Of a stretch of 64,000 nucleotides of DNA, positions 3,892-53,676 are shown one piece after another. Position 1 is the first letter of the stretch. Every line of letters begins with the position of its first letter. Origin of the DNA: Acidobacteriota bacterium (GTDB lineage Bacteria; Acidobacteriota; Vicinamibacteria; Vicinamibacterales; 2-12-FULL-66-21); NCBI GenBank assembly GCA_046727175.1, contig JBKPCD010000144.1:8384-72383 (forward strand), in the 5' to 3' direction. The notes below the pieces were generated by a model. It was given only the letters and a program-made list of their open reading frames with translations, was not told the origin of the DNA and did not search any database. Made by a program: the position numbers and the translations under genes.

Positions 3892-4128
3892 AGTTCCCTT
3901 TTCCCTTTCCCTTATCTTCTTTCGCTTATCTGCTTCACCGCCTTCACTACGCTCACAGAGAATCTTGTTTTCTCTTTTCTCCATTTCTCCTGTAAATCCT
4001 CTTCTCCCGCGCTCCTGTTCGCCGAATTATGCGCGAAGCATCTGCAGCAGATCCATCCGGCGTTGGATGACATATGCTCGGACTACGGATGCTGAAAACG
4101 CCAGCCTGGTTCCAAAATTCTCAGCCCA

Positions 4129-5671: not shown

Positions 5672-8140
5672 CTACTCGTACCTCAGCGCCAGAATCGGAT
5701 CGACGCGGCTCGCTCGGCGGGCGGGCAGCCAGACGGCCAGCAACGCGACGGCGGCGAGCACGAGGGGGACCGCTGTGAACACCAGCGGATCCCGCGGGGT
5801 GACGCCGAAGAGCAGCGTCGCCATCAGTCGTGTCAGCCCAAAAGCTGATGCGAGTCCGATCGCGACTCCGACGAGCGTCAACCGGAGGCCCTGCCACACG
5901 ACCATGTTCTTCACCTGACTCGCGTCGGCGCCGAGCGCGAGGCGAATACCGAGCTCCGGCGTGCGCTGCGCGACCGAGTACGCCATCAGCCCGTAGATGC
6001 CAATCGCGGCCAGCAGCAGCGCAGCACTGCCGAACACGGTCATGAGCCACATGTAGAAGCGGTCGCGCGATGTCGACAGCGAGACCACTTCGCTCATCGG
6101 GCGAACATCGGTGACGGGCACACCGGTCGCCTGGCGCAACCGTTCCTGGATGGCGGCGCTGAACGCATGCGGTTCGCCGCGTGTTCGGATCACCCAGGCC
6201 ATCGGCGTCAAACGCACGTTCAAGGCGTTCGCGGCGTCGGGCACCTGCGCCTGCGGTATGTACATCGTCGGCTGCGGATCGCTGTTGAGACCACCATCCC
6301 GGATGTCGCTCACCACACCGATGATGTGGCGCTCGGGCTCGTCCTTGAACTCGCGCATCGGTCCCCGTCCGATCGCAAGTCGATCGTTGAGCGGATCGCT
6401 GTTCGGCCAATACCGGCGCGCCATGGATTCGTTGATGATCACTACGGCCGGTGACTGGCCGGTATCCCGATCGGTGAAGGTGCGTCCTCGCTTGACGGCG
6501 ATTCTGAAGACTTCGAAGTATCCGGGCGAAACTGTCAGCCAGCCGCCTCCACCGTGCGAGGGACCCTCGAGAGGACGGCCAACAATGATGAACGGAAGGC
6601 CGTAACCGCCTTCGAGCGGAACACAACACGCCGCGCTCGCCAGCTCGACGCCGGGCACCGCACGAAGCTGCTCTACGCCTTGGCGAATGAGCTGATCGAC
6701 GCCCTCCGATTTCGAAAACTGAGGTCCCGTCAACGACATCTTCATCGTCAGTACGTTCTGAACGTCGAACCCCGGATCTACGGCGCGCAGCGCTATCGAC
6801 GTGCGGATGAGCAATGCCGATCCGACCAGCAGAATGACGGCGAGCGCCACTTCGCTGACCACCAGCAGTGCGCGCGTCTTGTTCTGCCGCACACCAGCAC
6901 CCGAGCGTGCGCCGCTGTTCTTCAGCGTGGCGCTCACGTCGGTGCGCGAGCCGTGCAACGCGGGAATCAGCCCGAACAGGATTCCCGTTCCTGCCGACAC
7001 AATCGTCGTGAACGCGACAACACGCCAATCAAGGCCAACCAGCGACCCGTCCCGGCCGACGCGCGGCAAACCGGCCATGTTGATCGCCAGCAGTGCGCGT
7101 ATGCCGATGGTGCCGAGAAACAGACCGACTGCGCCTCCGGTCGCCGAGAGCACGACGCTCTCGGTCAGCATTTGACGAATGATTCGGCCGCGTCCGGCGC
7201 CGATTGCCGAGCGAACGGCAATCTCCCGCCGCCGACTCGTCGCGCGCACGAGAAGCAAGTTGGCGACGTTTGCGCACGCAATGAGCAGAACGAAGCTGAC
7301 TGCGCCCACGAGCACGAGCAGGGACGACCGCACGTTGCTGACGATCGCCTGCTGAAGGGGCTGCACGGTAAAGCTGCGGTTCGGCCCAATCGCGTTGGGA
7401 AACTTCTGCCGGAATTCAGCTCCGGACAGCTGGAGACGCGCCTTCGCCTGATCGAGGGATACCCGAGGCTTCAGACGGCCCATCACTCTGAAGTAGTGCA
7501 GCTGATTGTTGGTATTCGGGTCGAGTTGAAACGGCACCCAGACGTCCGGTGGCTGGCCGAACTCCTGAACGTCGAACGCCTCTCCGAGCACGCCGATGAC
7601 AACGTACGGATCGCCACTGAGCACGAGCGTCTTGCCAATCACGGCGGGATCGCGGTCGAAGCGCCGCGTCCAGACCCGGTAGCCGAGCACAGCGACTTTG
7701 TCGCCATTGGGACGATCCTCGTCGGCGTTGAACGTGCGGCCGAGAACGACAGGCGCGCCGAGCAGGCGAAAGTAATCGGCAGACACCTGCCCGGATCGCA
7801 GCTGCTCGGGAACCGCGCCTGCGGTGTAGTTGACCACGCCCATTCGGAATGCCGAGACGTCCTGAGCGACATCGGCCTGCTGGCGATAGTGCTGAAACTT
7901 CGCGGGCGACGCCGCCGATCCCGTGCCTTGCGGCGAGCTGTTCAGGAACATCACGATGCGATCGGGATCGGGAAACGGCATTGGCTTCAACATGACCGCA
8001 TTCACAACCGAGAAGATGGCTGTGTTGGCGCCGATGCCGAGTGCCAGTGCGGCCACGGCGGCAGCGGTGAACCCGGGACTCTGGCGGAACATCCGAAGAG
8101 AGTGCTTCAGATCGCGGAAGAAGCCTTCAAGAGAGGTCAT
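5672..8140 (-). CDS. ADOP-family duplicated orphan permease (MacB-like, two FtsX halves)
   Basis: ~822 aa from the internal ATG at 8140 (MTSLEGFFRDLKHSLRMFRQSPGFTAAAV), the canonical ADOP N-terminus. Two MacB_PCD/FtsX modules. The track ORF extends to 8296 across a repeat element, which I reject. Confidence 0.85.
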   Translation of the reverse strand: MTSLEGFFRDLKHSLRMFRQSPGFTAAAVAALALGIGANTAIFSVVNAVMLKPMPFPDPDRIVMFLNSSPQGTGSAASPAKFQHYRQQADVAQDVSAFRMGVVNYTAGAVPEQLRSGQVSADYFRLLGAPVVLGRTFNADEDRPNGDKVAVLGYRVWTRRFDRDPAVIGKTLVLSGDPYVVIGVLGEAFDVQEFGQPPDVWVPFQLDPNTNNQLHYFRVMGRLKPRVSLDQAKARLQLSGAEFRQKFPNAIGPNRSFTVQPLQQAIVSNVRSSLLVLVGAVSFVLLIACANVANLLLVRATSRRREIAVRSAIGAGRGRIIRQMLTESVVLSATGGAVGLFLGTIGIRALLAINMAGLPRVGRDGSLVGLDWRVVAFTTIVSAGTGILFGLIPALHGSRTDVSATLKNSGARSGAGVRQNKTRALLVVSEVALAVILLVGSALLIRTSIALRAVDPGFDVQNVLTMKMSLTGPQFSKSEGVDQLIRQGVEQLRAVPGVELASAACCVPLEGGYGLPFIIVGRPLEGPSHGGGGWLTVSPGYFEVFRIAVKRGRTFTDRDTGQSPAVVIINESMARRYWPNSDPLNDRLAIGRGPMREFKDEPERHIIGVVSDIRDGGLNSDPQPTMYIPQAQVPDAANALNVRLTPMAWVIRTRGEPHAFSAAIQERLRQATGVPVTDVRPMSEVVSLSTSRDRFYMWLMTVFGSAALLLAAIGIYGLMAYSVAQRTPELGIRLALGADASQVKNMVVWQGLRLTLVGVAIGLASAFGLTRLMATLLFGVTPRDPLVFTAVPLVLAAVALLAVWLPARRASRVDPILALRYE

Positions 8141-8223
8141 GGTGGTTGGACGTGAACGGCGCGGAAGAAGTTGAATAGGTTCTGAGGCCTGGCCGAGATA
8201 GCGCAGACGAGCACCGTTTCCAG

Positions 8224-8379
8224 CAGGATGCTGAAAAACGCATCCTGCGTGAGGTTCCCGGTTCACAGGTTCCCAGTTCCCGGTTTTGGTTCTCATTACG
8301 GCGCAGAACCAGCACTTTCGAACCGGGAACCGGGAACGGGGAACCGGTGAACCTCGCTGGCCGCGGTTTTTCAGCGGCC
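8224..8379. repeat. Three-hairpin modular intergenic element (conserved termini, GGAACC-type core)
   Basis: 5' module CAGGATGCTGAAAAACGCATCCTG (8224-8247). Core arms 8251-8292 (GGTTCCC units) and 8320-8355 (GGGAACC units). 3' module GGCCGCGGTTTTTCAGCGGCC (8359-8379). The terminal loops TGAAAAAC and GTTTTTCA are reverse complements. Confidence 0.9.
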
Positions 8380-8387
8380 CGTTAGGG

Positions 8388-9026
8388 TTAGAAGATTCCT
8401 ACCATCAACCCTGTTTTGATGTTGATAACGTCCGCCCGTAGGCGGCGCTCCCTGGATTCCGTGGCGGTCCTGATCTCCAACGTCGTCCGAGCAATCTCGT
8501 AGTCGGTCCCCACGAACACGCCTATTCTCGGACGGAGATCGTACGTGAGCCGAACTCCGGGTTTGACGACCCACGTGTTCTTCGCATCGACGCCGACCAC
8601 TGGCACCCCGACCAGCTGAGAGAACTTCTCAAGTTCCTCCTCTTCGACTTTCACCTTGACCCAGGCGGGACCTGTGACAATGCCGAAGTGCGTCTGGATT
8701 TTCCCGCGAACGATGCGATACGACACGCCCCCGAGGAGCGGCCGCACATTGAGGTGTCCGTCGAGCGGACCCGACAGATCGACGCTGTACCATCCAAATC
8801 CGAAGTCAGGTCCCCAACCACTATGTTGGGCGGGACGACTCAACCGATACGCAACGCCGTACCCGATGGAATTATCGAGCTCGCTGTTGACCGGGAAATG
8901 AAACGAGACCTGGCCGCCGACCGCAAATCGCCCCTCGCTCTGTGCAGCAGTGGTCGCCGGCGTGAACGCCAGAACGGCTAACGCGAGAACCGTACACAAA
9001 AATGCCTTCGAGGCTGGCTGAATCAT
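8388..9026 (-). CDS. Outer-membrane beta-barrel protein (small porin/OmpW-like)
   Basis: Start taken at MIQPASKAFLCTVLALAVLAFTPATTAAQ (Sec signal). Alternating beta-strand pattern and a C-terminal aromatic residue (GLMVGIF). Confidence 0.65.
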   Translation of the reverse strand: MIQPASKAFLCTVLALAVLAFTPATTAAQSEGRFAVGGQVSFHFPVNSELDNSIGYGVAYRLSRPAQHSGWGPDFGFGWYSVDLSGPLDGHLNVRPLLGGVSYRIVRGKIQTHFGIVTGPAWVKVKVEEEELEKFSQLVGVPVVGVDAKNTWVVKPGVRLTYDLRPRIGVFVGTDYEIARTTLEIRTATESRERRLRADVINIKTGLMVGIF

Positions 9027-9180
9027 GGCGAATTGAATCCTCTCGTGATCGGGGTACGGGCGACAGCGACGCGATGAGCCGCGCGAGTTGAATTTTAGGC
9101 CGAATTGGCGTTTGAGCGGCAGGCCAATGATTGCCGATTTCAATTACGTGTCCACGAATCGCTCATGTCGGAATGACCGG

Positions 9181-11022
9181 TTAACAAGATTTGCAGCGGT
9201 GGTTGTTCTTGGCACCGAGCTTCTCGAGTAGCGCGATGGTTTCGGGGAATGGCTGGATCCGCTGCACCGGGCCGTTTGCCATGTCCACGGTGGTTTCGCC
9301 GGCACGGTTCACAGCCTTCACGTCCGCCCCTTTTGACACGAGGTAGAGGATCATCTCGTTATCACCTCGCGCCGCCGCATGGTGGAGCGCGGTATTCCCC
9401 TCGTGATCACGCGCATTCACATCGGCGCCGAGCTCCTCGACCAGGTACTTCACGGCTGGCAGCCATCCGCTCGGGGCATTGCGGTGCGAGTTGGCGGCAA
9501 ACCCCTCGCCGTAGCCGACGCCCGTGGCGGCCTGTAACGGCGGCACGCCGGGCCCGCCGATCGGCAACGGCGGCACGCCCGACACATCCTCGACCGTCTC
9601 GCGTCCTCCATCTCCGGTGCGCGGCCGACCCGCGGGCTTGACCGTCGGGATGTTCGGATCCGCGCCATACGAAATCAGGAGCCGCATCGCATCGACGTCG
9701 CTCGCGTACGCGGCGCGCCAGAAGGGCGTCGCGCCGATCTCGTCCACGCCCGAGAGATCGAAGTTGTATCCCGAGTACCAGACCTTCTTCTTCAATCGCG
9801 CGTTGACGTCGACGCCTTCTTCCAGCAGCATCTTCATCAGGTCGAGGTACGCCAGCTTCTGCTGAAGGTATGCGCGAGGCTGCGGGTACAACGCCTTGGG
9901 CGCCCACTGCACGTTCAGCACTGCGTAGAGGGGCGTGACGCCGTTATCGCTTGCGAGCTGAGGATCGGCCCCCTTCTCCAGCAGCAGAGCCGCGAGGTCG
10001 AACTGGCCGTTGATGATCGCCATCAGCAGCGGGCTCGTCGCGTCGCTGCCTGCGACACGATTGATCTCCGCGCCTGAGTCGAGGAGCACCTTCACCGCCT
10101 CGATGCGCCCTTGACGGGCGGCGAACAACAACGGGGTGAGGCCCCCCTGTGCAGTGACGAGCTCGGCGAAACGGAACTGACGGCTCACACCGGCAACGCC
10201 TCCCTGGGCCCCGCCGTCACGACCACTGCGACCGCGCTGCGCGCCGTCGTCTGCCGGCTGCGCCGCGACTGACGCCGCTTCCGCGGGAGTGTTGCCGGTC
10301 GTCGGCGCTGCATTCGGCCTGGCTTCAGGCGAGGGAGACGAGGCGGAATCGGGAGGCGCGGCACCGCGCGCGGCGCGGCCACCGCCGCGACCGCTCTGCT
10401 GCGCGCGCAGGAACGCTTCTTCTTCGGCGTTCGTCTGTCCTCTCAGGTCGGTCACCTTGCTCGCGAGCTGAATGTCGGCGCCAGCGGCGATCAGCACTTT
10501 CATCGCGTCGAGGCGATTCGAGGCCGCCGCGAACATCAGGGCGGTTTCACCTCTGACGGATTCCTTTGCGTTCACGTCAGCGCCGTGCTCGACGAGTACC
10601 TTGACCGCGTCCGGCTTTCCTGCCGCCGCGGCGAGCATCACGGCCGTCGTCCCGTTCGTCGTGGCGCTCTTGGGATCGGCGCCGGCCTTGATCAGCGTCT
10701 CGATGACTGCGGCGTGTCCCAGCTCGCTTGCCATCAGCAGCGGCGTGTATGCACCCAGCCGCGTCGTTGCCTTGATGTTGGCGCCGGCGTAGATCAGCAT
10801 CTGCGCGAGCTCCGCGTCGCCGTGACGTGCCGCCCAGTGCAACGCCGTCGTGCCGTCGCCCTGCGGGGCGTTCACGTCCGCACCTTGCCTGAGCAGTGCG
10901 CGGACTGCCGCGGCGTCGCCGAGCAGCGCTGCGTCCGCCACGCGCGATTCGCCCGATGATGCCGACAGTAGGCCGTTCAGGCACAGCGCCGCGAGCAGAC
11001 CACATACGCTGATGCGTTGCAT
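9181..11022 (-). CDS. Secreted ankyrin-repeat protein
   Basis: Start at MQRISVCGLLAALCLNGLLSA (signal peptide). Many ANK units (GTTALHWAARHGD..LL..GADVNA pattern) are split by a low-complexity Ala/Pro/Gly linker. It ends in HRCKSC. Confidence 0.85.
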   Translation of the reverse strand: MQRISVCGLLAALCLNGLLSASSGESRVADAALLGDAAAVRALLRQGADVNAPQGDGTTALHWAARHGDAELAQMLIYAGANIKATTRLGAYTPLLMASELGHAAVIETLIKAGADPKSATTNGTTAVMLAAAAGKPDAVKVLVEHGADVNAKESVRGETALMFAAASNRLDAMKVLIAAGADIQLASKVTDLRGQTNAEEEAFLRAQQSGRGGGRAARGAAPPDSASSPSPEARPNAAPTTGNTPAEAASVAAQPADDGAQRGRSGRDGGAQGGVAGVSRQFRFAELVTAQGGLTPLLFAARQGRIEAVKVLLDSGAEINRVAGSDATSPLLMAIINGQFDLAALLLEKGADPQLASDNGVTPLYAVLNVQWAPKALYPQPRAYLQQKLAYLDLMKMLLEEGVDVNARLKKKVWYSGYNFDLSGVDEIGATPFWRAAYASDVDAMRLLISYGADPNIPTVKPAGRPRTGDGGRETVEDVSGVPPLPIGGPGVPPLQAATGVGYGEGFAANSHRNAPSGWLPAVKYLVEELGADVNARDHEGNTALHHAAARGDNEMILYLVSKGADVKAVNRAGETTVDMANGPVQRIQPFPETIALLEKLGAKNNHRCKSC

Positions 11023-11036
11023 ATCGCTACTCCACA

Positions 11037-11123
11037 GAAAGTAAGAAGTTCGAAGTACGAAGTGAGAAGTAAAAGCTTCGCGACTCAAATCGGTCGTTCT
11101 TCACCTCTTACTTCTTACTTTCC
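11037..11123. repeat. Microsatellite hairpin (GAAGTAA-type units)
   Basis: GAAAGTAAGAAGTTCGAAGTACGAAGTGAGAAGTAAAAG ... TTCTTCACCTCTTACTTCTTACTTTCC, between the ankyrin gene start and the DUF1552 gene stop. Confidence 0.85.
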
Positions 11124-11126
11124 AAT

Positions 11127-12533
11127 TCATCCCGCCTCGGTCAGTGATGGCACGCCGGTCAGGTCGAACGCTCCGGTGCTGTCGCCGAAACGCTGGAGAT
11201 CGTCGAGGCCCAGGTCGTGGAGCAGCCTCAGCATCACGTTGGCCATCGGTGTGCCGTCAGGCGCCTTGACGTGCAGGTTCCCCTTCAGGTGGCCGTTCGC
11301 GCGGCCGGCGAGGAACAGCGGGCAACGCTTGTGATTGTGGACGTTCGAGTTCCCCATTGGCGATCCGTAGATGACGAGGGTCTTGTCGAGGAGGTTGCCA
11401 TCGCCTTCCCGCAGGTTCTTCAGCTTCTCGAGGAAGTACGGCACCAGGCTGACGTGGTGCTTGTTGATCTGCGCGAACTGCACAATGCGATCTTCGCGCT
11501 CGCCGTGATGCGACGCAGGATGGAACGGCAGGTTCACACCGCTCGCCGGATAGACGCGTGCCGAACCGTCACGTCCGAGCTTGAACGTGAACACGCGTGT
11601 GATGTCGGCCGCAAACGCCAGCGCCTGCAGATCGAACATCAACTTCACGTGGTCCTCGAACGAGTCGGGCACCCCAAGCGGCGCACCGGGCAGCTCCCGC
11701 TGCTCGCCACTGCTGTTGTACGCCTCGACCTTCTGGATCCGCCGCTCGATCTCGCGGATGTCGTTCAGGTACTCGCTCAGTCTGGTGCGATCGGTTGGTC
11801 CAAGATCGCGTGCGAGCCTTGCGACTTCGCCCGTCACCCAGTCGAGGATGCTGCGATTGGTCCGTCGGTTCTCCGCGCGCTGCTCGGGCGTCGCCCCCAC
11901 GCCGAACAACTGATCGAACGCGGCACGCGGATCGCGGACCATCGGGAGCGGCTCGGTTGGCGACGCCCAGCTGATCGTGTCGGTGTACACGCAAGCGTAC
12001 CCGTACGCGCAGCCGCCGGACTGATCGACGTTCTCGATGCACAGCTGCATCGACGGGATGGGCGTGTCCTGACCGAATCGTTGCGCGTACAGCTGATCGA
12101 TCGACGTGCCGACGTAGACGTCCGACCCTTCGGTCTGCCTCGGATGTGCCTGCGTGAGGAAGACTGCGCTCGAGCGGAAGTGGTCGCCGCCGATCTCTTT
12201 CGGCTGGAACGCCTCCGCGTTTCGCACATCGGTGTTGCTGACGATCGTGATGTAGTCGCGGACTGGTTCGAGCGGACTCAGACTGCTCGGCGAGAGGTCG
12301 AACGCACGACCGACAGCTGCCGGAGACCACATGTTCTTGGCGAGGCCATGCACCGTGCTTCCGGCTGCGCCATGCACCATCTCGATACAGGAGAAGCGTG
12401 TCCGGCCTGCCGCCGCCGTCTTGGCCAGCAACGTTCGCGCCGGCACCATCGCGTCCAGGAGCGGCAGGGCGATCGTCGCCCCCATTCCGCGAAGCACGGT
12501 CCGGCGTGAGATGTGCTTTTTCGTCAGATACAT
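11127..12533 (-). CDS. DUF1552 domain protein with a TAT signal
   Basis: Start at MYLTKKHISRRTVLRGMGATIALPLLDAM, with GAGGAG 7 nt upstream. Length and N-terminus are typical of DUF1552. It is paired with a DUF1592-type gene immediately upstream. Confidence 0.8.
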   Translation of the reverse strand: MYLTKKHISRRTVLRGMGATIALPLLDAMVPARTLLAKTAAAGRTRFSCIEMVHGAAGSTVHGLAKNMWSPAAVGRAFDLSPSSLSPLEPVRDYITIVSNTDVRNAEAFQPKEIGGDHFRSSAVFLTQAHPRQTEGSDVYVGTSIDQLYAQRFGQDTPIPSMQLCIENVDQSGGCAYGYACVYTDTISWASPTEPLPMVRDPRAAFDQLFGVGATPEQRAENRRTNRSILDWVTGEVARLARDLGPTDRTRLSEYLNDIREIERRIQKVEAYNSSGEQRELPGAPLGVPDSFEDHVKLMFDLQALAFAADITRVFTFKLGRDGSARVYPASGVNLPFHPASHHGEREDRIVQFAQINKHHVSLVPYFLEKLKNLREGDGNLLDKTLVIYGSPMGNSNVHNHKRCPLFLAGRANGHLKGNLHVKAPDGTPMANVMLRLLHDLGLDDLQRFGDSTGAFDLTGVPSLTEAG

Positions 12534-15367: not shown

Positions 15368-15563
15368 CCAGATCGACCTACGAAGGACACAAACCCATCG
15401 CGCAGTATACGGCCGGATTGGGCCGATTGGAGCCCGGTTTTCAGCATCGAGGCCGCCGCGCGCCGAGCTTCAAGCCCGGCCTGTCTTCGACGGGCTGACG
15501 TGCTGACGACACGCGCATTTCACGCGGTCCACTGCGCGACACCCAACAGAGACATCCACCCGT

Positions 15564-15628
15564 GGCTGTCCCGTTTGGCTGTCCCGGTTGGCTGTCCCGG
15601 TTGGCTGTCCCGAGTGGCTGGCACCGGC
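15564..15628. repeat. Tandem 13-nt repeat GGCTGTCCCGGTT x about 4.5
   Basis: Unit starts at 15564, 15577, 15590, 15603 and 15616 (the last is degenerate). It lies ~200 nt upstream of the DUF1592 start and directly downstream of the creatininase-like stop. Confidence 0.9.
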
Positions 15629-15640
15629 GCCTGTCCCCTT

Positions 15641-21786: not shown

Positions 21787-21968
21787 GAAGTTAGAAGCCA
21801 GAAGTTAGAGCGAACCGTATCGCGATCGCACTAACAGGATGCTGAAAGACGCATCCTGAATGGCAGATGGCTAATGGAAAAAACCTGAGCATTTTGCCAT
21901 CTCCCATTTGCCATTTTCCATCAGGCCGGCGTTTTTCAGCGGCCTGCTAAGTTCTGGATTCTAGATTC
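21787..21968. repeat. Outer inverted repeat (GAAGTTA-type units) bracketing the modular element
   Basis: GAAGTTAGAAGCCAGAAGTTAG (21787-21808) vs CTAAGTTCTGGATTCTAGATTC (21947-21968); 18 of 22 positions are complementary. Confidence 0.8.
21835..21945. repeat. Three-hairpin modular intergenic element, copy 1 (ATGGAAA/TTGCCAT core)
   Basis: CAGGATGCTGAAAGACGCATCCTG + core AATGGCAGATGGCTAATGGAAAAAACCTGAGCATTTTGCCATCTCCCATTTGCCATTTTCCATC + AGGCCGGCGTTTTTCAGCGGCCT. Confidence 0.9.
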
Positions 21969-22989: not shown

Positions 22990-23058
22990 ACAGGAGATGA
23001 GAAGATCAGGAGTCATTTTTGTTTGGGAAAATGCACTCCTGGCCTCCTGATCTCCTGT
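22990..23058. repeat. CAGGAGAT-type hairpin in the divergent glxA-like/ADOP promoter region
   Basis: ACAGGAGATGAGAAGATCAGGAGT (22990-23013), 21-nt AT-rich loop, ACTCCTGGCCTCCTGATCTCCTGT (23035-23058). Confidence 0.85.
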
Positions 23059-25646: not shown

Positions 25647-25967
25647 AGCTGAATCACTAATCCCTGATCGTGAATCCCTCATCCTCGAATCCTCGAATCC
25701 TCGAATCCTCGAATCCTCGAATCAGAATCCTCGAATCCTCGAATCCTCGAATCAGAATCCTCGAATCCTCGAATCCTCGAATCAGAATCCTCGAATCGCT
25801 GAATCCTCGAATCCTTGAATCATTCGATCAGGCAACTTGACCATTGAATCCTGGACTCGCGGCCGAGTCCCAACGTGCAATCGAGCGATTCGACGATTCA
25901 GCGATTCGAGGGATCCGAGGAATCCAACGATGAAAGATTCACGATTAGTGATCAGTGATCAGTGATT
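25647..25967. repeat. ~320-bp imperfect palindrome built from an 8-nt microsatellite (ATCCTCGA / TCGAGGAT)
   Basis: The left side 25681-25823 has about 13 perfect ATCCTCGA units plus degenerate copies, with a 30-nt higher-order period (three units + ATCAGA) x3. The right side 25879-25967 carries complementary GATTCGAG-type units. The outermost GAATCACTAATCCCTGATCGTGAATC pairs with GATTCACGATTAGTGATCAGTGATCAGTGATTC. Confidence 0.9.
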
Positions 25968-30164: not shown

Positions 30165-30229
30165 GGGCGATCCCTCATCCTCTCTGCCGATCGCGGATGT
30201 TGTGTACGGGATACGGACGAACAGTGTAG

Positions 30230-30324
30230 CCGGATTCGGGTTCCGGATTCACAGGTTCCACGTTCCAGGTCGGTTCTTCTCCGGAACCTACCCGGAACCC
30301 GGAACCTGTGAACCCGGAACCTGG
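30230..30324. repeat. GGAACC-type microsatellite hairpin (core related to 8251-8355, without the conserved termini)
   Basis: CCGGATTCGGGTTCCGGATTCACAGGTTCCACGTTCCAGGTCGGTTC / TTCT / CCGGAACCTACCCGGAACCCGGAACCTGTGAACCCGGAACCTGG. It shares TTCACAGGTTCC with the 8224-8379 element. Confidence 0.9.
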
Positions 30325-31659
30325 CTACCGCCAGTATTTCTCCACGAATTCGAGGAACGCCTTCCAGTCGGCGGGTGTAGCCGTGTGCCCGCCCGTGTGG
30401 TAATGCCAGCCCAGATCGCCGTTCGTCAGCGCCGTGTCGAGCGGGGGGAGCGACGTGACACCCAGATCCTTCTTGCCGAGCAGTCGATACGCAGGACCTA
30501 CCGCGACCTCGGCGAGAAATTCACCGACGGGATCGGCCCATTGATCGCCGGTGCCGCCGGTGATGAACACGGGACGCGGCGCGCTCAGCGCAATCAGCAT
30601 GTGCGCATCCACCGGCATCTCGTTCCAGCGTCCCACCCACTTCTGGAAATTCCCAGCGAACTGCCACGGAAAGTTCTGCGCCATGTCGTCCACTGTTTCG
30701 CCCCAGTCGCGGCGCGCGAGCGCGGAGCCCATCTCGCCCGCGCAGCTCGAATACACCGCTGCGATGCGCTCGTCGAGGGCGGAGGCCCACAGAACCGTTT
30801 TGCCAAGCCGCGAATGCCCGTGCACCGCGATCTGCTTCGCGTTCACCGACCGATCGGTTTCGAAGTAATCGAGGATGCGACTGATGCCCCACGACCACGC
30901 GCTGATCGTGCCCCACTCGTCAGCCGCAGGCTGCTGCTGCCCCGCCGTCAGCGTCGCGCCGATGACGCCTTCGCTCCAGGCGTTCGCGCGATCCGGCTGG
31001 ACGTCCAGATACCCGACCGTCGCGTATCCCCAGCCGCGCGCGACGATGTCCGCAGAAACAGGCGAGTCGCTGAACGCATTCGGATTCATCGCTCGACCGC
31101 CGCCAGCGCCGGCGGCCGGCGACGGACCGCCACCAAAATTCACGAGGAGGATCACGGGAACGGGTTTCTTCGCATCGATCGGCGTGTACAGCATCACGTT
31201 GATTCGCGGAGCATCGGCCTTCTCACCGACCGTCCCCACAATCTTCTTCATCACTGCCGTACCCGAGCGCGCGTGTGCGTCGGTTTCCACGACCTGCCAT
31301 CTGACGCGCGGCGTGCTCGCCGGTATGCGGCCGTAGATCTCGGTCTCGTAGAGTCGAACGATCTCGGGACGACGCTGCTTCATCCAGACGGTGGCGTCCT
31401 TGACGGGCGCGCCGCTGGCGAGGACGAGCGGATCGGGCAATGTGTAAGGACGCACCTTGCTCTCGTCATAGTTCGACACGTGGCCCGTCTTCAGCGCGAG
31501 TCGCAACGGATTGCCATTGGGATCAGCGCCGAGATTCGTGCTGCGGCCGGATCCCTGGGGCGTCTCGGTTTGAACGGTGGGCGTCGGCTGCTGCTGTGCT
31601 CCGACGACCAGAGTCGCGCAGATGAGCGCTGGGCCCAGGTGGATGATTCGCGACGACAT
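30325..31659 (-). CDS. Carbohydrate esterase family 15-like (glucuronoyl esterase) secreted protein
   Basis: Start at MSSRIIHLGPALICATLVVGAQQQ (signal). Nucleophile motif GHSRLGKTVLWASALDERI, as in bacterial CE15. The track ORF extends to 31953, which I reject. Confidence 0.7.
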   Translation of the reverse strand: MSSRIIHLGPALICATLVVGAQQQPTPTVQTETPQGSGRSTNLGADPNGNPLRLALKTGHVSNYDESKVRPYTLPDPLVLASGAPVKDATVWMKQRRPEIVRLYETEIYGRIPASTPRVRWQVVETDAHARSGTAVMKKIVGTVGEKADAPRINVMLYTPIDAKKPVPVILLVNFGGGPSPAAGAGGGRAMNPNAFSDSPVSADIVARGWGYATVGYLDVQPDRANAWSEGVIGATLTAGQQQPAADEWGTISAWSWGISRILDYFETDRSVNAKQIAVHGHSRLGKTVLWASALDERIAAVYSSCAGEMGSALARRDWGETVDDMAQNFPWQFAGNFQKWVGRWNEMPVDAHMLIALSAPRPVFITGGTGDQWADPVGEFLAEVAVGPAYRLLGKKDLGVTSLPPLDTALTNGDLGWHYHTGGHTATPADWKAFLEFVEKYWR

Positions 31660-49971: not shown

Positions 49972-49983
49972 GATGTTCGCTCA

Positions 49984-50101
49984 CAGGATGCTGAAAACGC
50001 ATTCTGAATGGCAGAGGGTAAATGGAAAATGGAAAAAACCTGAGCACTTTGCCATCTCCCATTTGCCATTTTCCATCAGGCCGGTTCTCTTTCAGTGGCC
50101 T
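49984..50101. repeat. Three-hairpin modular intergenic element, copy 2 (near-identical to 21835-21945)
   Basis: CAGGATGCTGAAAACGCATTCTG + AATGGCAGAGGGTAAATGGAAAATGGAAAAAACCTGAGCACTTTGCCATCTCCCATTTGCCATTTTCCATC + AGGCCGGTTCTCTTTCAGTGGCCT. A 37-nt exact match to copy 1: TTTGCCATCTCCCATTTGCCATTTTCCATCAGGCCGG. Confidence 0.9.
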
Positions 50102-50125
50102 GCTAATCAACAGTGAGCGTGACCG

Positions 50126-52110: not shown

Positions 52111-52154
52111 CGTGCCGGGATTCGGGGTTTGTGGCTCGGGAACAGCCCGCTTTG

Positions 52155-52360
52155 ATCCGCGGACATCTGCGAAAATCCGCGTCTCGTACGAACTCTTCAG
52201 ATCCGCGTCAATCCGCGAGAATCCGCGTCTCGTCGGTAGGTTTATCCGCGGACATCCGCGAAAATCCGCGTCTCGTGTGAAGGTCCTATCCGCGGACGTT
52301 CGCGGAAATCCGCGTCTCGTCGGAGGTCTTCTGCTCCGCCTCCATCCGCGTAAATCCGCG
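52155..52360. repeat. Array of 14 ATCCGCG heptamers in five clusters with strict 10-bp internal spacing
   Basis: Heptamers (two degenerate) start at 52155/65/75, 52201/11/21, 52244/54/64, 52288/98/308 and 52344/54. The cluster consensus is ATCCGCGGACATCCGCGAAAATCCGCGTCTCGT. Clusters are spaced 43-56 nt apart. The array spans the stop codon of the DAACS gene. Confidence 0.9.
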
Positions 52361-53587
52361 TCTCAGCCCGACGAGCGCCGCCAGTGCCATATCCGCCGTA
52401 ACGTTGGCCGTCGTGCGAAACGCGTTCGGAATCGGATCGACGGCCAGCAGCATCCCGATTGATTCCGCGGGAAGACCGGCGGCCATCATGACCGGCAGCA
52501 CGACGTAGACCGATCCGCTGGGCACGCCGCCCACCGTAAAACTGGCGAGCACGGCGACGAGCACCGTCTGCACCAGCCGCGGCGCGTCGAGCGGCACGCC
52601 GTACAGCCGGGCGACGAAGCAGACAACGGTCAGGAACCAGATCGGCGACGCGTACTTGAACATCGCGACGGCCAGCGGCAGCACGACCCCGCTCACCGCG
52701 GACGGCACCCGAAGCACGGTTCCCGCGCCCTCGAGCAGGGCCGGCAGCGAGGCGAGCGAGGAATGCGTGCTGAACGCCATCACCTGCGCGGGCGCGGCCG
52801 CTCGCGCGAAGTCGCGCGCCCTGCAACATCCTGCAAGACCCACGAGCGGATACAGCGCACTCGTAAACACGATCTGCGCGACGGATGCCGTGACCACGTA
52901 GAACAGGATCGCGCTCACAATCGAGACGCCGAGCTGCAGCATCATGCCCAGCGCCAGCGCGAACACTCCGATCGGCGCAGCGGCGACGACCCACGACAGG
53001 ACGATCGTCATCGTGGCGTCGACGGCAGCGAAGAAGCGGACGATGGGCTCCCGCCGGTCGACGGCGAGGCGTCCGAGCGCGAGGCTGAAGACGATCGTGA
53101 AGACGAGCAGCGGCAGCATCGCGCCATCGGCTGCGGCTTTCAGCGCGTTGGTCGGAATCAGGCTCGTAATCCAGCTCTCGAACGACGGGTTAGCCGTCGC
53201 CGGTGTCGCCGTGCCTGCGGACCTGGCCCGAAGCGTTTCGGTGACCGCTGGATCGACCGGCATGCGAGCGAACACGGAAGGCATCACGGCCCCGCTTATT
53301 GCGCCCGGGATGAGAAGGAGGGCGATCATCAGCGCGGCCGCGCGGACTCCTGCGCGCCGCACGAGGTCCGTGTTCCCCCCGCTCGCGAGCACGATGATCA
53401 CTTTCGAGACGACGAGCGGGACGATCGTCATCAGGATGGCGTTGATCCACAAGGTGCCGGTGATCCCGACGATCGATTCGACGAACGTGCGTGGCGGGTT
53501 CGGCAGGGTCGTCATGCCGGCGCCGACGATGACCCCAGCGACGAGCGCAGCGAGCGCCTGCGTGCCGACACTGCGTGTGCTCCGCAT
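52286..53587 (-). CDS. Dicarboxylate/amino acid:cation symporter (DAACS/SDF family)
   Basis: Start at MRSTRSVGTQALAALVAGVIVGAG. SDF-type motif AAGLPAESIGMLLAVDPIPNAFRTTANVTADMA. The last ~25 codons are encoded by the ATCCGCG repeat array. Confidence 0.85.
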   Translation of the reverse strand: MRSTRSVGTQALAALVAGVIVGAGMTTLPNPPRTFVESIVGITGTLWINAILMTIVPLVVSKVIIVLASGGNTDLVRRAGVRAAALMIALLLIPGAISGAVMPSVFARMPVDPAVTETLRARSAGTATPATANPSFESWITSLIPTNALKAAADGAMLPLLVFTIVFSLALGRLAVDRREPIVRFFAAVDATMTIVLSWVVAAAPIGVFALALGMMLQLGVSIVSAILFYVVTASVAQIVFTSALYPLVGLAGCCRARDFARAAAPAQVMAFSTHSSLASLPALLEGAGTVLRVPSAVSGVVLPLAVAMFKYASPIWFLTVVCFVARLYGVPLDAPRLVQTVLVAVLASFTVGGVPSGSVYVVLPVMMAAGLPAESIGMLLAVDPIPNAFRTTANVTADMALAALVGLRRGFTRMEAEQKTSDETRISANVRG

Positions 53588-53652
53588 CGCGCGCGAGTGT
53601 ATCAGCACCTCAGATACTGCGCAGGCGGAAATTCCCCGCCGGCCGCCACTCA

Positions 53653-53676
53653 CAGGAGATCAGGAGGTCAGGAGAT
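53653..53676. repeat. CAGGAGAT-unit run
   Basis: CAGGAGATCAGGAGGTCAGGAGAT lies between the GNAT stop and the DAACS start. The same unit family occurs at 22990-23058, 39478-39502 and 12620-12678. Confidence 0.8.

Follow-up and report, generated by a model that had tools for sequence, protein, structure and literature searches.

A probable IS5-type MITE with a GGTTCC-unit hairpin core between an OMP-like gene and a MacB/FtsX permease gene in Acidobacteriota

The element at positions 8224–8381 of the 64-kb stretch of DNA analyzed here (the window) is very probably a non-coding, non-autonomous IS5-type transposon (MITE) that is moved in trans. Its terminal inverted repeats (TIRs) are those of full-length insertion sequences (ISs), its family duplicates the target site, copies occupy multiple loci, and filled and empty alleles of its own site coexist. 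The family is abundant in Vicinamibacterales-type Acidobacteriota. It is an ordinary IS-derived MITE rather than a new class of element.

The element is 158 bp long, carries no transposase gene and has no coding capacity; the ORFs that overlap it are chance only (≤62 codons). On the + strand, it starts with the left TIR module H1 (8224–8247, CAGGATGCTGAAAAACGCATCCTG), which reads CAGGATGC-TGAAAAAC-GCATCCTG and folds alone into an 8-bp stem-loop. The core (8248–8358) is an imperfect long hairpin built of 7-nt GGTTCC(C) units, the arms of which (8251–8285 and 8321–8355) pair as GGTTCCC/GGGAACC. The right TIR module H3 (8359–8381, GGCCGC-GGTTTTTCA-GCGGCC-CG) is likewise a small stem-loop by itself; it was first delimited as 8359–8379 (GGCCGCGGTTTTTCAGCGGCC), but the true end of the element is 8381. 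The reverse complement of this copy of H3 is CGGGCCGCTGAAAAACCGCGGCC, and its tip is CCCG, not CCTG. Across the three copies in the window, H3 has the general form (CA)GGCCG..TTTTTCAGCGGCC(T/C)G. The initial annotation had proposed that the ends form a TIR of ~12 nt. The reverse complement of H3 indeed aligns with H1, as CAGGnnGCTGAAAAA..., but over ~24 nt (roughly CAGGnnGCTGAAAAAsnC...CCTG); in the 8224 element, CAGGATGCTGAAAAAC and the right-end reverse complement CGGGCCGCTGAAAAAC agree at 13 of 16 positions. The element is flanked by CCAG (8220–8223, the reverse complement of CTGG) and TTAG (8382–8385, the reverse complement of CTAA), the two copies of the target-site duplication, each one base off CTAG. 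Beyond the right copy lies a 6-nt tandem duplication, GGTTAG (8386–8391), which holds the stop codon (8388–8390, minus strand) of the adjoining OMP-like gene (8388–9026, minus strand) and shifts this codon 6 nt from the element.

The predicted fold of the region has an energy of −98 kcal/mol (z = −8.4), with about equal stability on the opposite strand. Such stability on both strands, the mutual complementarity of the two end loops and the position directly after a stop codon would suit a resident, locus-specific structured RNA, or a terminator/attenuator in the gap between the OMP-like and permease genes, with the ends serving as RNA motifs (e.g. kissing loops UGAAAAAC/GUUUUUCA). However, an Rfam search of the whole window yielded 0 hits at gathering thresholds, and at E-value thresholds only far-sub-threshold models of eukaryotic miRNA hairpins. 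Scanning positions 8050–8500 for sigma-70 promoters and intrinsic terminators gave 0 sites, and a U-tract of the terminator type is absent. In an alignment of 31 copies of the right-end stem-loop H3, 90% of cells are paired and one compensatory change is seen, with covariation no better than in shuffled controls; a structural constraint on this stem-loop is putative and unproven. Under a plain TIR model, the end modules would not need to form stem-loops at all.

Comparison with orthologous loci revealed both filled and empty alleles of the 8224 site. The OMP-like gene is matched exactly on contig L188 of NCBI assembly GCA_046735855.1; this contig is identical to window positions 6925–11526, GGTTAG duplication included. 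A second filled allele, L129, is 97.4% identical to the window over 5.6 kb and matches the element at 158/158 positions; it lacks the GGTTAG duplication, which is private to the window and L188, and the TTA of its right target duplication serves as the OMP-like stop codon. In loci L190–L199, found through the 90% cluster of the OMP-like protein, the gene order is the same (ankyrin-repeat gene, OMP-like gene, MacB/FtsX permease gene), and identity to the window is 96.9–98.0% on both sides. These loci carry ~10 nt, ATCTTCTAGAAGCTAGTCG, in place of window positions 8215–8388; CTAG is present there once, overlapping the stop codon at the end of the upstream (OMP-like) gene. In gene direction, the empty allele reads ATCTTC-TAG-AAGCTAGTCGTGCTCG and the filled allele ATCTTCTAA(CCCTAA)/CGGGCCGC...GCATCCTG/CTGGAAACGGTGCTCG, and the break between them falls at the outer tips of both modules. 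The original CTAG target contained the TAG stop, and its duplicates are now CTAA, still a stop, and CTGG. The permease gene lies 83 nt beyond the insertion target; an exact look-up of its protein found no record. The intergenic gap measures 83 nt in the empty alleles and 247 nt in the filled one, which is accounted for by 83 + 158 (element) + 4 (duplication) + 6 (GGTTAG) − 4 (AGTC indel) = 247. One substitution and a 4-nt indel distinguish the right flank of the 8224 copy from the empty alleles, and the junction is not pristine.

The site is filled in the window, L188 and L129 and empty in L190–L199. As both kinds of allele stand at the same distance from the window, the polymorphism segregates in a species-level population. 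At 97–98% identity, it points to recent activity on the scale of populations, which makes the family useful as a strain marker. The absence of the element from the same locus in such close relatives argues against a resident structured RNA, as do the copies found in both orientations relative to transcription and the identity of the ends with IS ends. The perfect match of the element between the window and L129, in flanks that are 97.4% identical, has a neutral chance of ~0.02 and would fit constraint on an RNA; even so, we consider this origin very unlikely. The inserted hairpin may have a secondary effect at the RNA level, but the element did not originate in this way. When the flanks of 44 copies were joined and searched for as empty sites, none was found among the loci examined. 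One further candidate, L189, was rejected as an empty site; its OMP-like gene is 76% identical and the downstream region is not syntenic. At L200, a different 93-nt palindromic element (2142–2234) with 28-nt inverted ends, ATAACCAAGGGCTCTGCCCTTGAAATCC, occupies the same intergenic spot as the MITE, which suggests an insertion hot spot after the OMP-like stop codon. Neither the window nor the 200 loci contain a further copy of this palindrome.

In the window, three + strand elements share the end modules, as the initial annotation described: 8224–8381, 21835–21946 and 49984–50102. The second copy (21831–21950 with flanks) has a perfect CTAA/CTAA duplication, and the third (49980–50106 with flanks) has CTCA/CTAA; with respect to the flanking genes, it is oriented the other way round from the 8224 and 21835 copies. 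Both are canonical, with hairpin cores of ATGGCAA-like units. Local alignment of the canonical core with the 8224 core scores 8–9, the level of shuffled sequence, in agreement with the earlier view that the 8224 core is unrelated to the others. The about eight occurrences of the 10-mer GCTGAAAAAC counted previously were not recovered: three are exact and seven are found at ≤1 mismatch, against 2.07 expected. Element ends account for four of the seven, while two (6917 and 11415) lie within coding sequence and look like chance matches. As for solo copies, the one placed at ~4087 is a real, decayed left-end relic (4085–4108, + strand, CGGATGCTGAAAACGCCAGCCTG). It has the 15-mer GGATGCTGAAAACGC in common with the 49984 copy, and neither a core nor a right end is present within 300 nt. 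The other, at 15436–15448, is probably a chance match: it agrees at 12 of 13 positions, contains the candidate start ATG of the neighboring gene, and ~0.3 such matches are expected per window.

A scan for the H1 motif in one genome per species returned at least 103 loci, of which ~45 belong to MAGs of Vicinamibacterales or other Acidobacteriota; the remainder are chance matches. The acidobacterial loci hold complete H1-core-H3 elements of 112–134 nt, with about 35 canonical copies among the matches listed, in several Vicinamibacterales MAGs. Their cores are near-identical inside one MAG and differ between MAGs, yet remain of the ATGGnnn-unit type, which is the pattern of families amplifying inside each genome. 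Overall, more than 40 dispersed copies occur across several MAGs and metagenomes, in both orientations relative to genes. The termini are strongly enriched in related genomes, and the earlier reading as mobile DNA is borne out. Several variants were observed besides the complete elements. L036 carries, on the minus strand from ~3179, a 200-nt form bounded on either side by H1-type ends; only H1 is present in L064, where CTAG flanks it, and in L156, where CTAG precedes it; and L158 holds a canonical copy with an array of GGGACTG units nested in its core. The 8224 element had no match among PLSDB plasmids. A full-text literature search for the TIR sequence retrieved an unrelated primer only, and a search for Vicinamibacter with IS or inverted repeat found nothing relevant and no paper describing repeats of Vicinamibacteria.

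Duplication of the target was assessed on the 4-mers that flank 44 copies. These are identical on both sides in 17 copies, compared to 5.5 ± 2.0 in shuffled pairings; across 20,000 shuffles the maximum was 14 and none reached 17. Rare 4-mers (TCAA, GTAG, CTAC, CTAT and TTAG) covary on the two sides. The commonest MITE flanks, CTAG, CTAA and TTAG, conform to YTAR, and the IS flanks are CTAG/CTAG or TTAG/TTAG. IS5 targets and duplicates a 4-bp 5'-YTAR-3' sequence (PMC5009759), and the flanks indicate that the family, like IS5, makes a 4-bp target duplication at YTAR. A 2-bp TA duplication of the IS630/Tc1-like type, our first idea, was discarded, as the whole 4-mer covaries and the partner ISs are of the IS5 family. 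The window (64% G+C) contains 55 YTAR sites, which are ~7x denser outside genes. Many of them are contributed by stop codons, and this accounts for the copies located just after stop codons.

This duplication also bears on the REP/BIME/REPIN-type reading, according to which two inverted palindromic REP units would be multiplied by a RAYT (TnpA-REP, an IS200-like HUH enzyme) acting on single-stranded hairpins. There are resemblances: each end module forms a hairpin, H1 and H3 are mutually inverted like the units of a REPIN, TAG/CTA in the flanks is loosely reminiscent of the REP tetranucleotide GTAG, and the family, like REPs, is intergenic, abundant and multi-copy. REPINs, however, make no target duplication, whereas the 4-mers flanking this family covary as one, the empty alleles hold a single CTAG, and the ISs with the same ends encode DDE transposases of the IS5 family. 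We therefore regard a REP-type origin as extremely unlikely. The initial annotation had proposed to look for target-site duplications at the element boundaries, which the 44 copies show, and for a TnpA-REP/IS200-like partner, which is at odds with both the duplication and the DDE enzymes of the ISs.

These ISs are 1.3-kb elements of the IS5 family with the ends CAGGATGCTGAAAAA...TTTTTCAGxATCCTG, a DUF772+DDE transposase (NF033581) and CTAG flanks; ends of the element type were found in L078, L104–L114 and L201. In L078, the H1 motif is followed by an ORF with no core, and a 1312-bp IS spans 627–1938. Its left end is TTAG followed by CAGGATGCTGAAAAACGCATCGTG, and its right end GCTTTTTCAGCATCCTG (also written GCGTGCTTTTTCAGCATCCTG) followed by CTAG. 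The single ORF contains Pfam domains DUF772 and DDE_Tnp_1 and scores 274 bits against the NCBIfam model NF033581 'IS5 family transposase' (cut-off 140), and 201 bits against the IS1182 model, under its cut-off of 270. This transposase has thousands of close homologues, mostly on short metagenome contigs. H1 of the 8224 element matches the left end of the L078 IS at 22 of 24 positions and those of the L104–L113 ISs over the first 15 nt. A 90%-identical transposase (P0087, P0106) resides in a 1297-bp IS with the ends CAGGATGCTGAAAAAG and CGTTTTTCAGAATCCTG, which is bordered by CTAG on both sides at several distinct sites and, in L105 and L108, lies between two MFS_1 ORF fragments. On an Azospirillum plasmid, an ISAzs10-family IS runs CAGGCCGCGGAAAAAGG...CCTTTTTCCGCGTCCTG between two TTAG copies, and its CAGGCCGCGGAAAAAGG end is nearly the same as the MITE right end. 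The ends of the L078, L104-type and ISAzs10-family ISs identify the conserved termini as the TIR consensus of an IS5-group IS clade. In L104, a second, larger DUF772 transposase gene (1–1129) sits directly upstream of the 1297-bp IS and ends with a similar terminus, GCTTTTCAGCAGCCTG followed by CTAG, which implies that several related ISs share the TIR consensus and nest side by side.

IS5-group elements (IS5, ISAzs10 family) are ~1.2–1.3 kb long, with one ORF for a DDE transposase (NF033581) and a 4-bp YTAR duplication (PMC5009759), whereas the 8224 element lacks a transposase gene and has only the outer 15–24 nt in common with the ISs. The ISs recovered here agree with the MITE over the outer 15–22 nt only, so that an origin of the MITE as an internally deleted IS is hypothetical. 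Neither the 64-kb window nor the MITE-bearing contigs examined yielded a full-length IS with such ends, and tblastn of the IS transposase against the window gave no match.

Among the ~35 full copies listed in the unbiased scan, the 8224 copy alone has a non-canonical core. A metagenome scan for H1 with a non-canonical continuation returned 73 stretches, mostly unrelated chance matches, and four were relevant. One is the orthologous L129. At a different locus, L162 holds the same composite, H1-CGTGAGGTTCCC...GAACCTCGCT-H3. L125 has H1 and a GGTTCC hairpin but has lost H3; this copy follows a + strand gene, and its orientation with respect to its genes is reversed. At L163, a 74-nt deletion form of the GGTTCC-core element lies between CTAG and GTAG. 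The presence of the GGTTCC-core form at L162, L125 and L163 points to a low-copy subfamily rather than a local accident. The 'cassette-like', modular element of the initial annotation holds in that unrelated cores occur inside the same ends; 'cassette-like' itself overstates the case, with one odd core per ~35 listed copies and only three loci added by the targeted scan.

A stand-alone hairpin of GGTTCC units at 30228–30332 is related to the 8224 core and has no IS-type ends. It has the ends GTAGCC...GGCTAC and fills the 76 nt that separate two minus-strand genes, of which the upstream one has its stop codon in the CTA at 30325–30327. Local alignment of this hairpin with the 8224 core scores 35 (9.6 ± 1.7 for shuffled sequences), and the two have the 14-mer GGTTCACAGGTTCC in common. 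Judged by this similarity, the hairpin is likely a source or a sibling of the 8224 core, and the likeliest origin of the core would be a resident hairpin that became enclosed by two ends and was mobilized afterwards. The stand-alone hairpin may itself represent either a terminator-like structure or a further small mobile element. The proximity of such a relative within the same window, together with the single GGTTCC-core copy among the ~35 listed in the unbiased scan, could also suggest a one-off chimera formed in situ, in which a canonical MITE had its core exchanged on the spot, through recombination or template switching involving the nearby hairpin; such a variant would not be a transposable unit. 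Composites with identical junctions at other loci (L162, L125 and L163) speak against this, and so do the empty alleles, which lack both ends and the core and break exactly at the outer tips; a local replacement is, to us, barely credible.

Hairpins of short tandem units are common in the window and beside MITEs in related MAGs. At 25649–25965, an imperfect palindrome of ~320 nt built of 8-nt units (GAATCCTC) lies between convergent genes, with 14 tandem registers on its left arm and a fold of −125 kcal/mol. A hairpin of CTCCTGATCTCC-type units at 22990–23058 occupies a divergent intergenic gap, bounded by an AraC/DJ-1 regulator gene and the + strand gene that follows. Two tandem arrays were also noted: five copies of a 13-nt unit, TGGCTGTCCCGGT, at 15550–15637 in the gap of two minus-strand genes, and five copies of a 43–46-nt unit with three ATCCGCG motifs each at 52152–52371, overlapping the 3' end of ORF 52286–53659 (minus strand). 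The latter is not CRISPR-like because unique spacers are absent. The window further contains many ORFs of ~760–910 codons; that at 5672–8140 is a duplicated MacB_PCD/FtsX permease, and the remaining long ORFs hint at large families of paralogous permeases, as are typical of Acidobacteriota.

Taking the element as an IS5-type MITE, we propose the following mode of spread. A DDE transposase from a full-length IS elsewhere in the genome would bind the ~24-bp ends and cut at their CAGG/CCTG tips; the element would then be inserted at a YTAR tetranucleotide, in most cases CTAG or CTAA, and the tetranucleotide thereby duplicated. The core would be cargo that is dispensable to the transposase and hence free to differ between subfamilies: a hairpin of ATGGCAA-like units in the main subfamily and one of GGTTCC units in the low-copy subfamily. 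The GGTTCC core was probably captured from, or is shared with, resident intergenic hairpins such as 30228–30332. The 8224 copy entered, as one unit, the CTAG that overlaps the OMP-like stop codon, 83 nt upstream of the MacB/FtsX permease gene, and the target duplication preserved a stop codon for the OMP-like gene. Insertion on a stop codon before a MacB-type permease gene could alter read-through or mRNA stability. More speculatively, IS5-type MITEs might pick up resident hairpins and spread them to YTAR sites at stop codons, or the end hairpins might act in a single-strand step of transposition; we hold this to be improbable. If hairpin pick-up did occur, host 3'-end structures would be partly transposon-borne and shuffled, and the resident hairpins, which are common in these genomes, could be U-tract-less terminators or RNA-stability elements. 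The assignment gives an explicit annotation, open to testing, to a repeat family strewn across the intergenic DNA of Vicinamibacterales-type Acidobacteriota—abundant soil bacteria that are barely cultured and whose mobile DNA is essentially undescribed.

The Correia elements of Neisseria and the Tourist/mPing elements, the latter with PIF/Harbinger, likewise consist of TIR, core and TIR, with TA and TAA/TTA as their targets. They insert beside genes and give long RNA hairpins once transcribed, and the transposases of PIF/Harbinger are related to the IS5 family. They differ from the 8224 family in their hosts, in their TIR sequences and in their duplications of 2–3 bp. Among bacterial repeats, BrickBuilt and other IS5-type MITEs of Porphyromonas gingivalis contain internal short tandem repeats (PMC4596501). 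BrickBuilt resembles the 8224 family in its IS5-family-like TIRs, its internal short-repeat array, its intergenic location and its several forms with partial ends; unlike the hairpin cores described here, its array is a 23-nt minisatellite that is not a self-complementary hairpin, and its TIR is GAGACC....

The initial annotation could not assign the element to a known repeat class, yet its layout—target duplication, TIR, core, TIR, target duplication—is that of a standard MITE (review PMC10969869), with the TIRs and YTAR duplication of the IS5 group. MITEPsy1/ISPsy2 of Pseudomonas syringae pv. phaseolicola appears to be the closest described analogue of the 8224 family (PMC3189936). MITEPsy1 is 100 nt long, has the TIR ..TCTGAAAAAGCC, was trapped moving in vivo and makes a 4-nt duplication at CTAG/YTAA; its ends are near-identical to those of the IS5-family IS presumed to move it in trans (PMC3189936). 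Its activity is thus experimental, whereas the 8224 family is known here from sequence alone. Both are short and non-coding, and the TIRs of MITEPsy1 contain CTGAAAAAGCC, comparable to GCTGAAAAACGC and GCTGAAAAAGCC in those of the 8224 family. MITEPsy1 belongs to another host phylum and has no long internal hairpin, while the 8224 family, at 112–159 nt, combines stem-loop TIRs with a large, unit-built core hairpin and comprises two subfamilies with unrelated cores.
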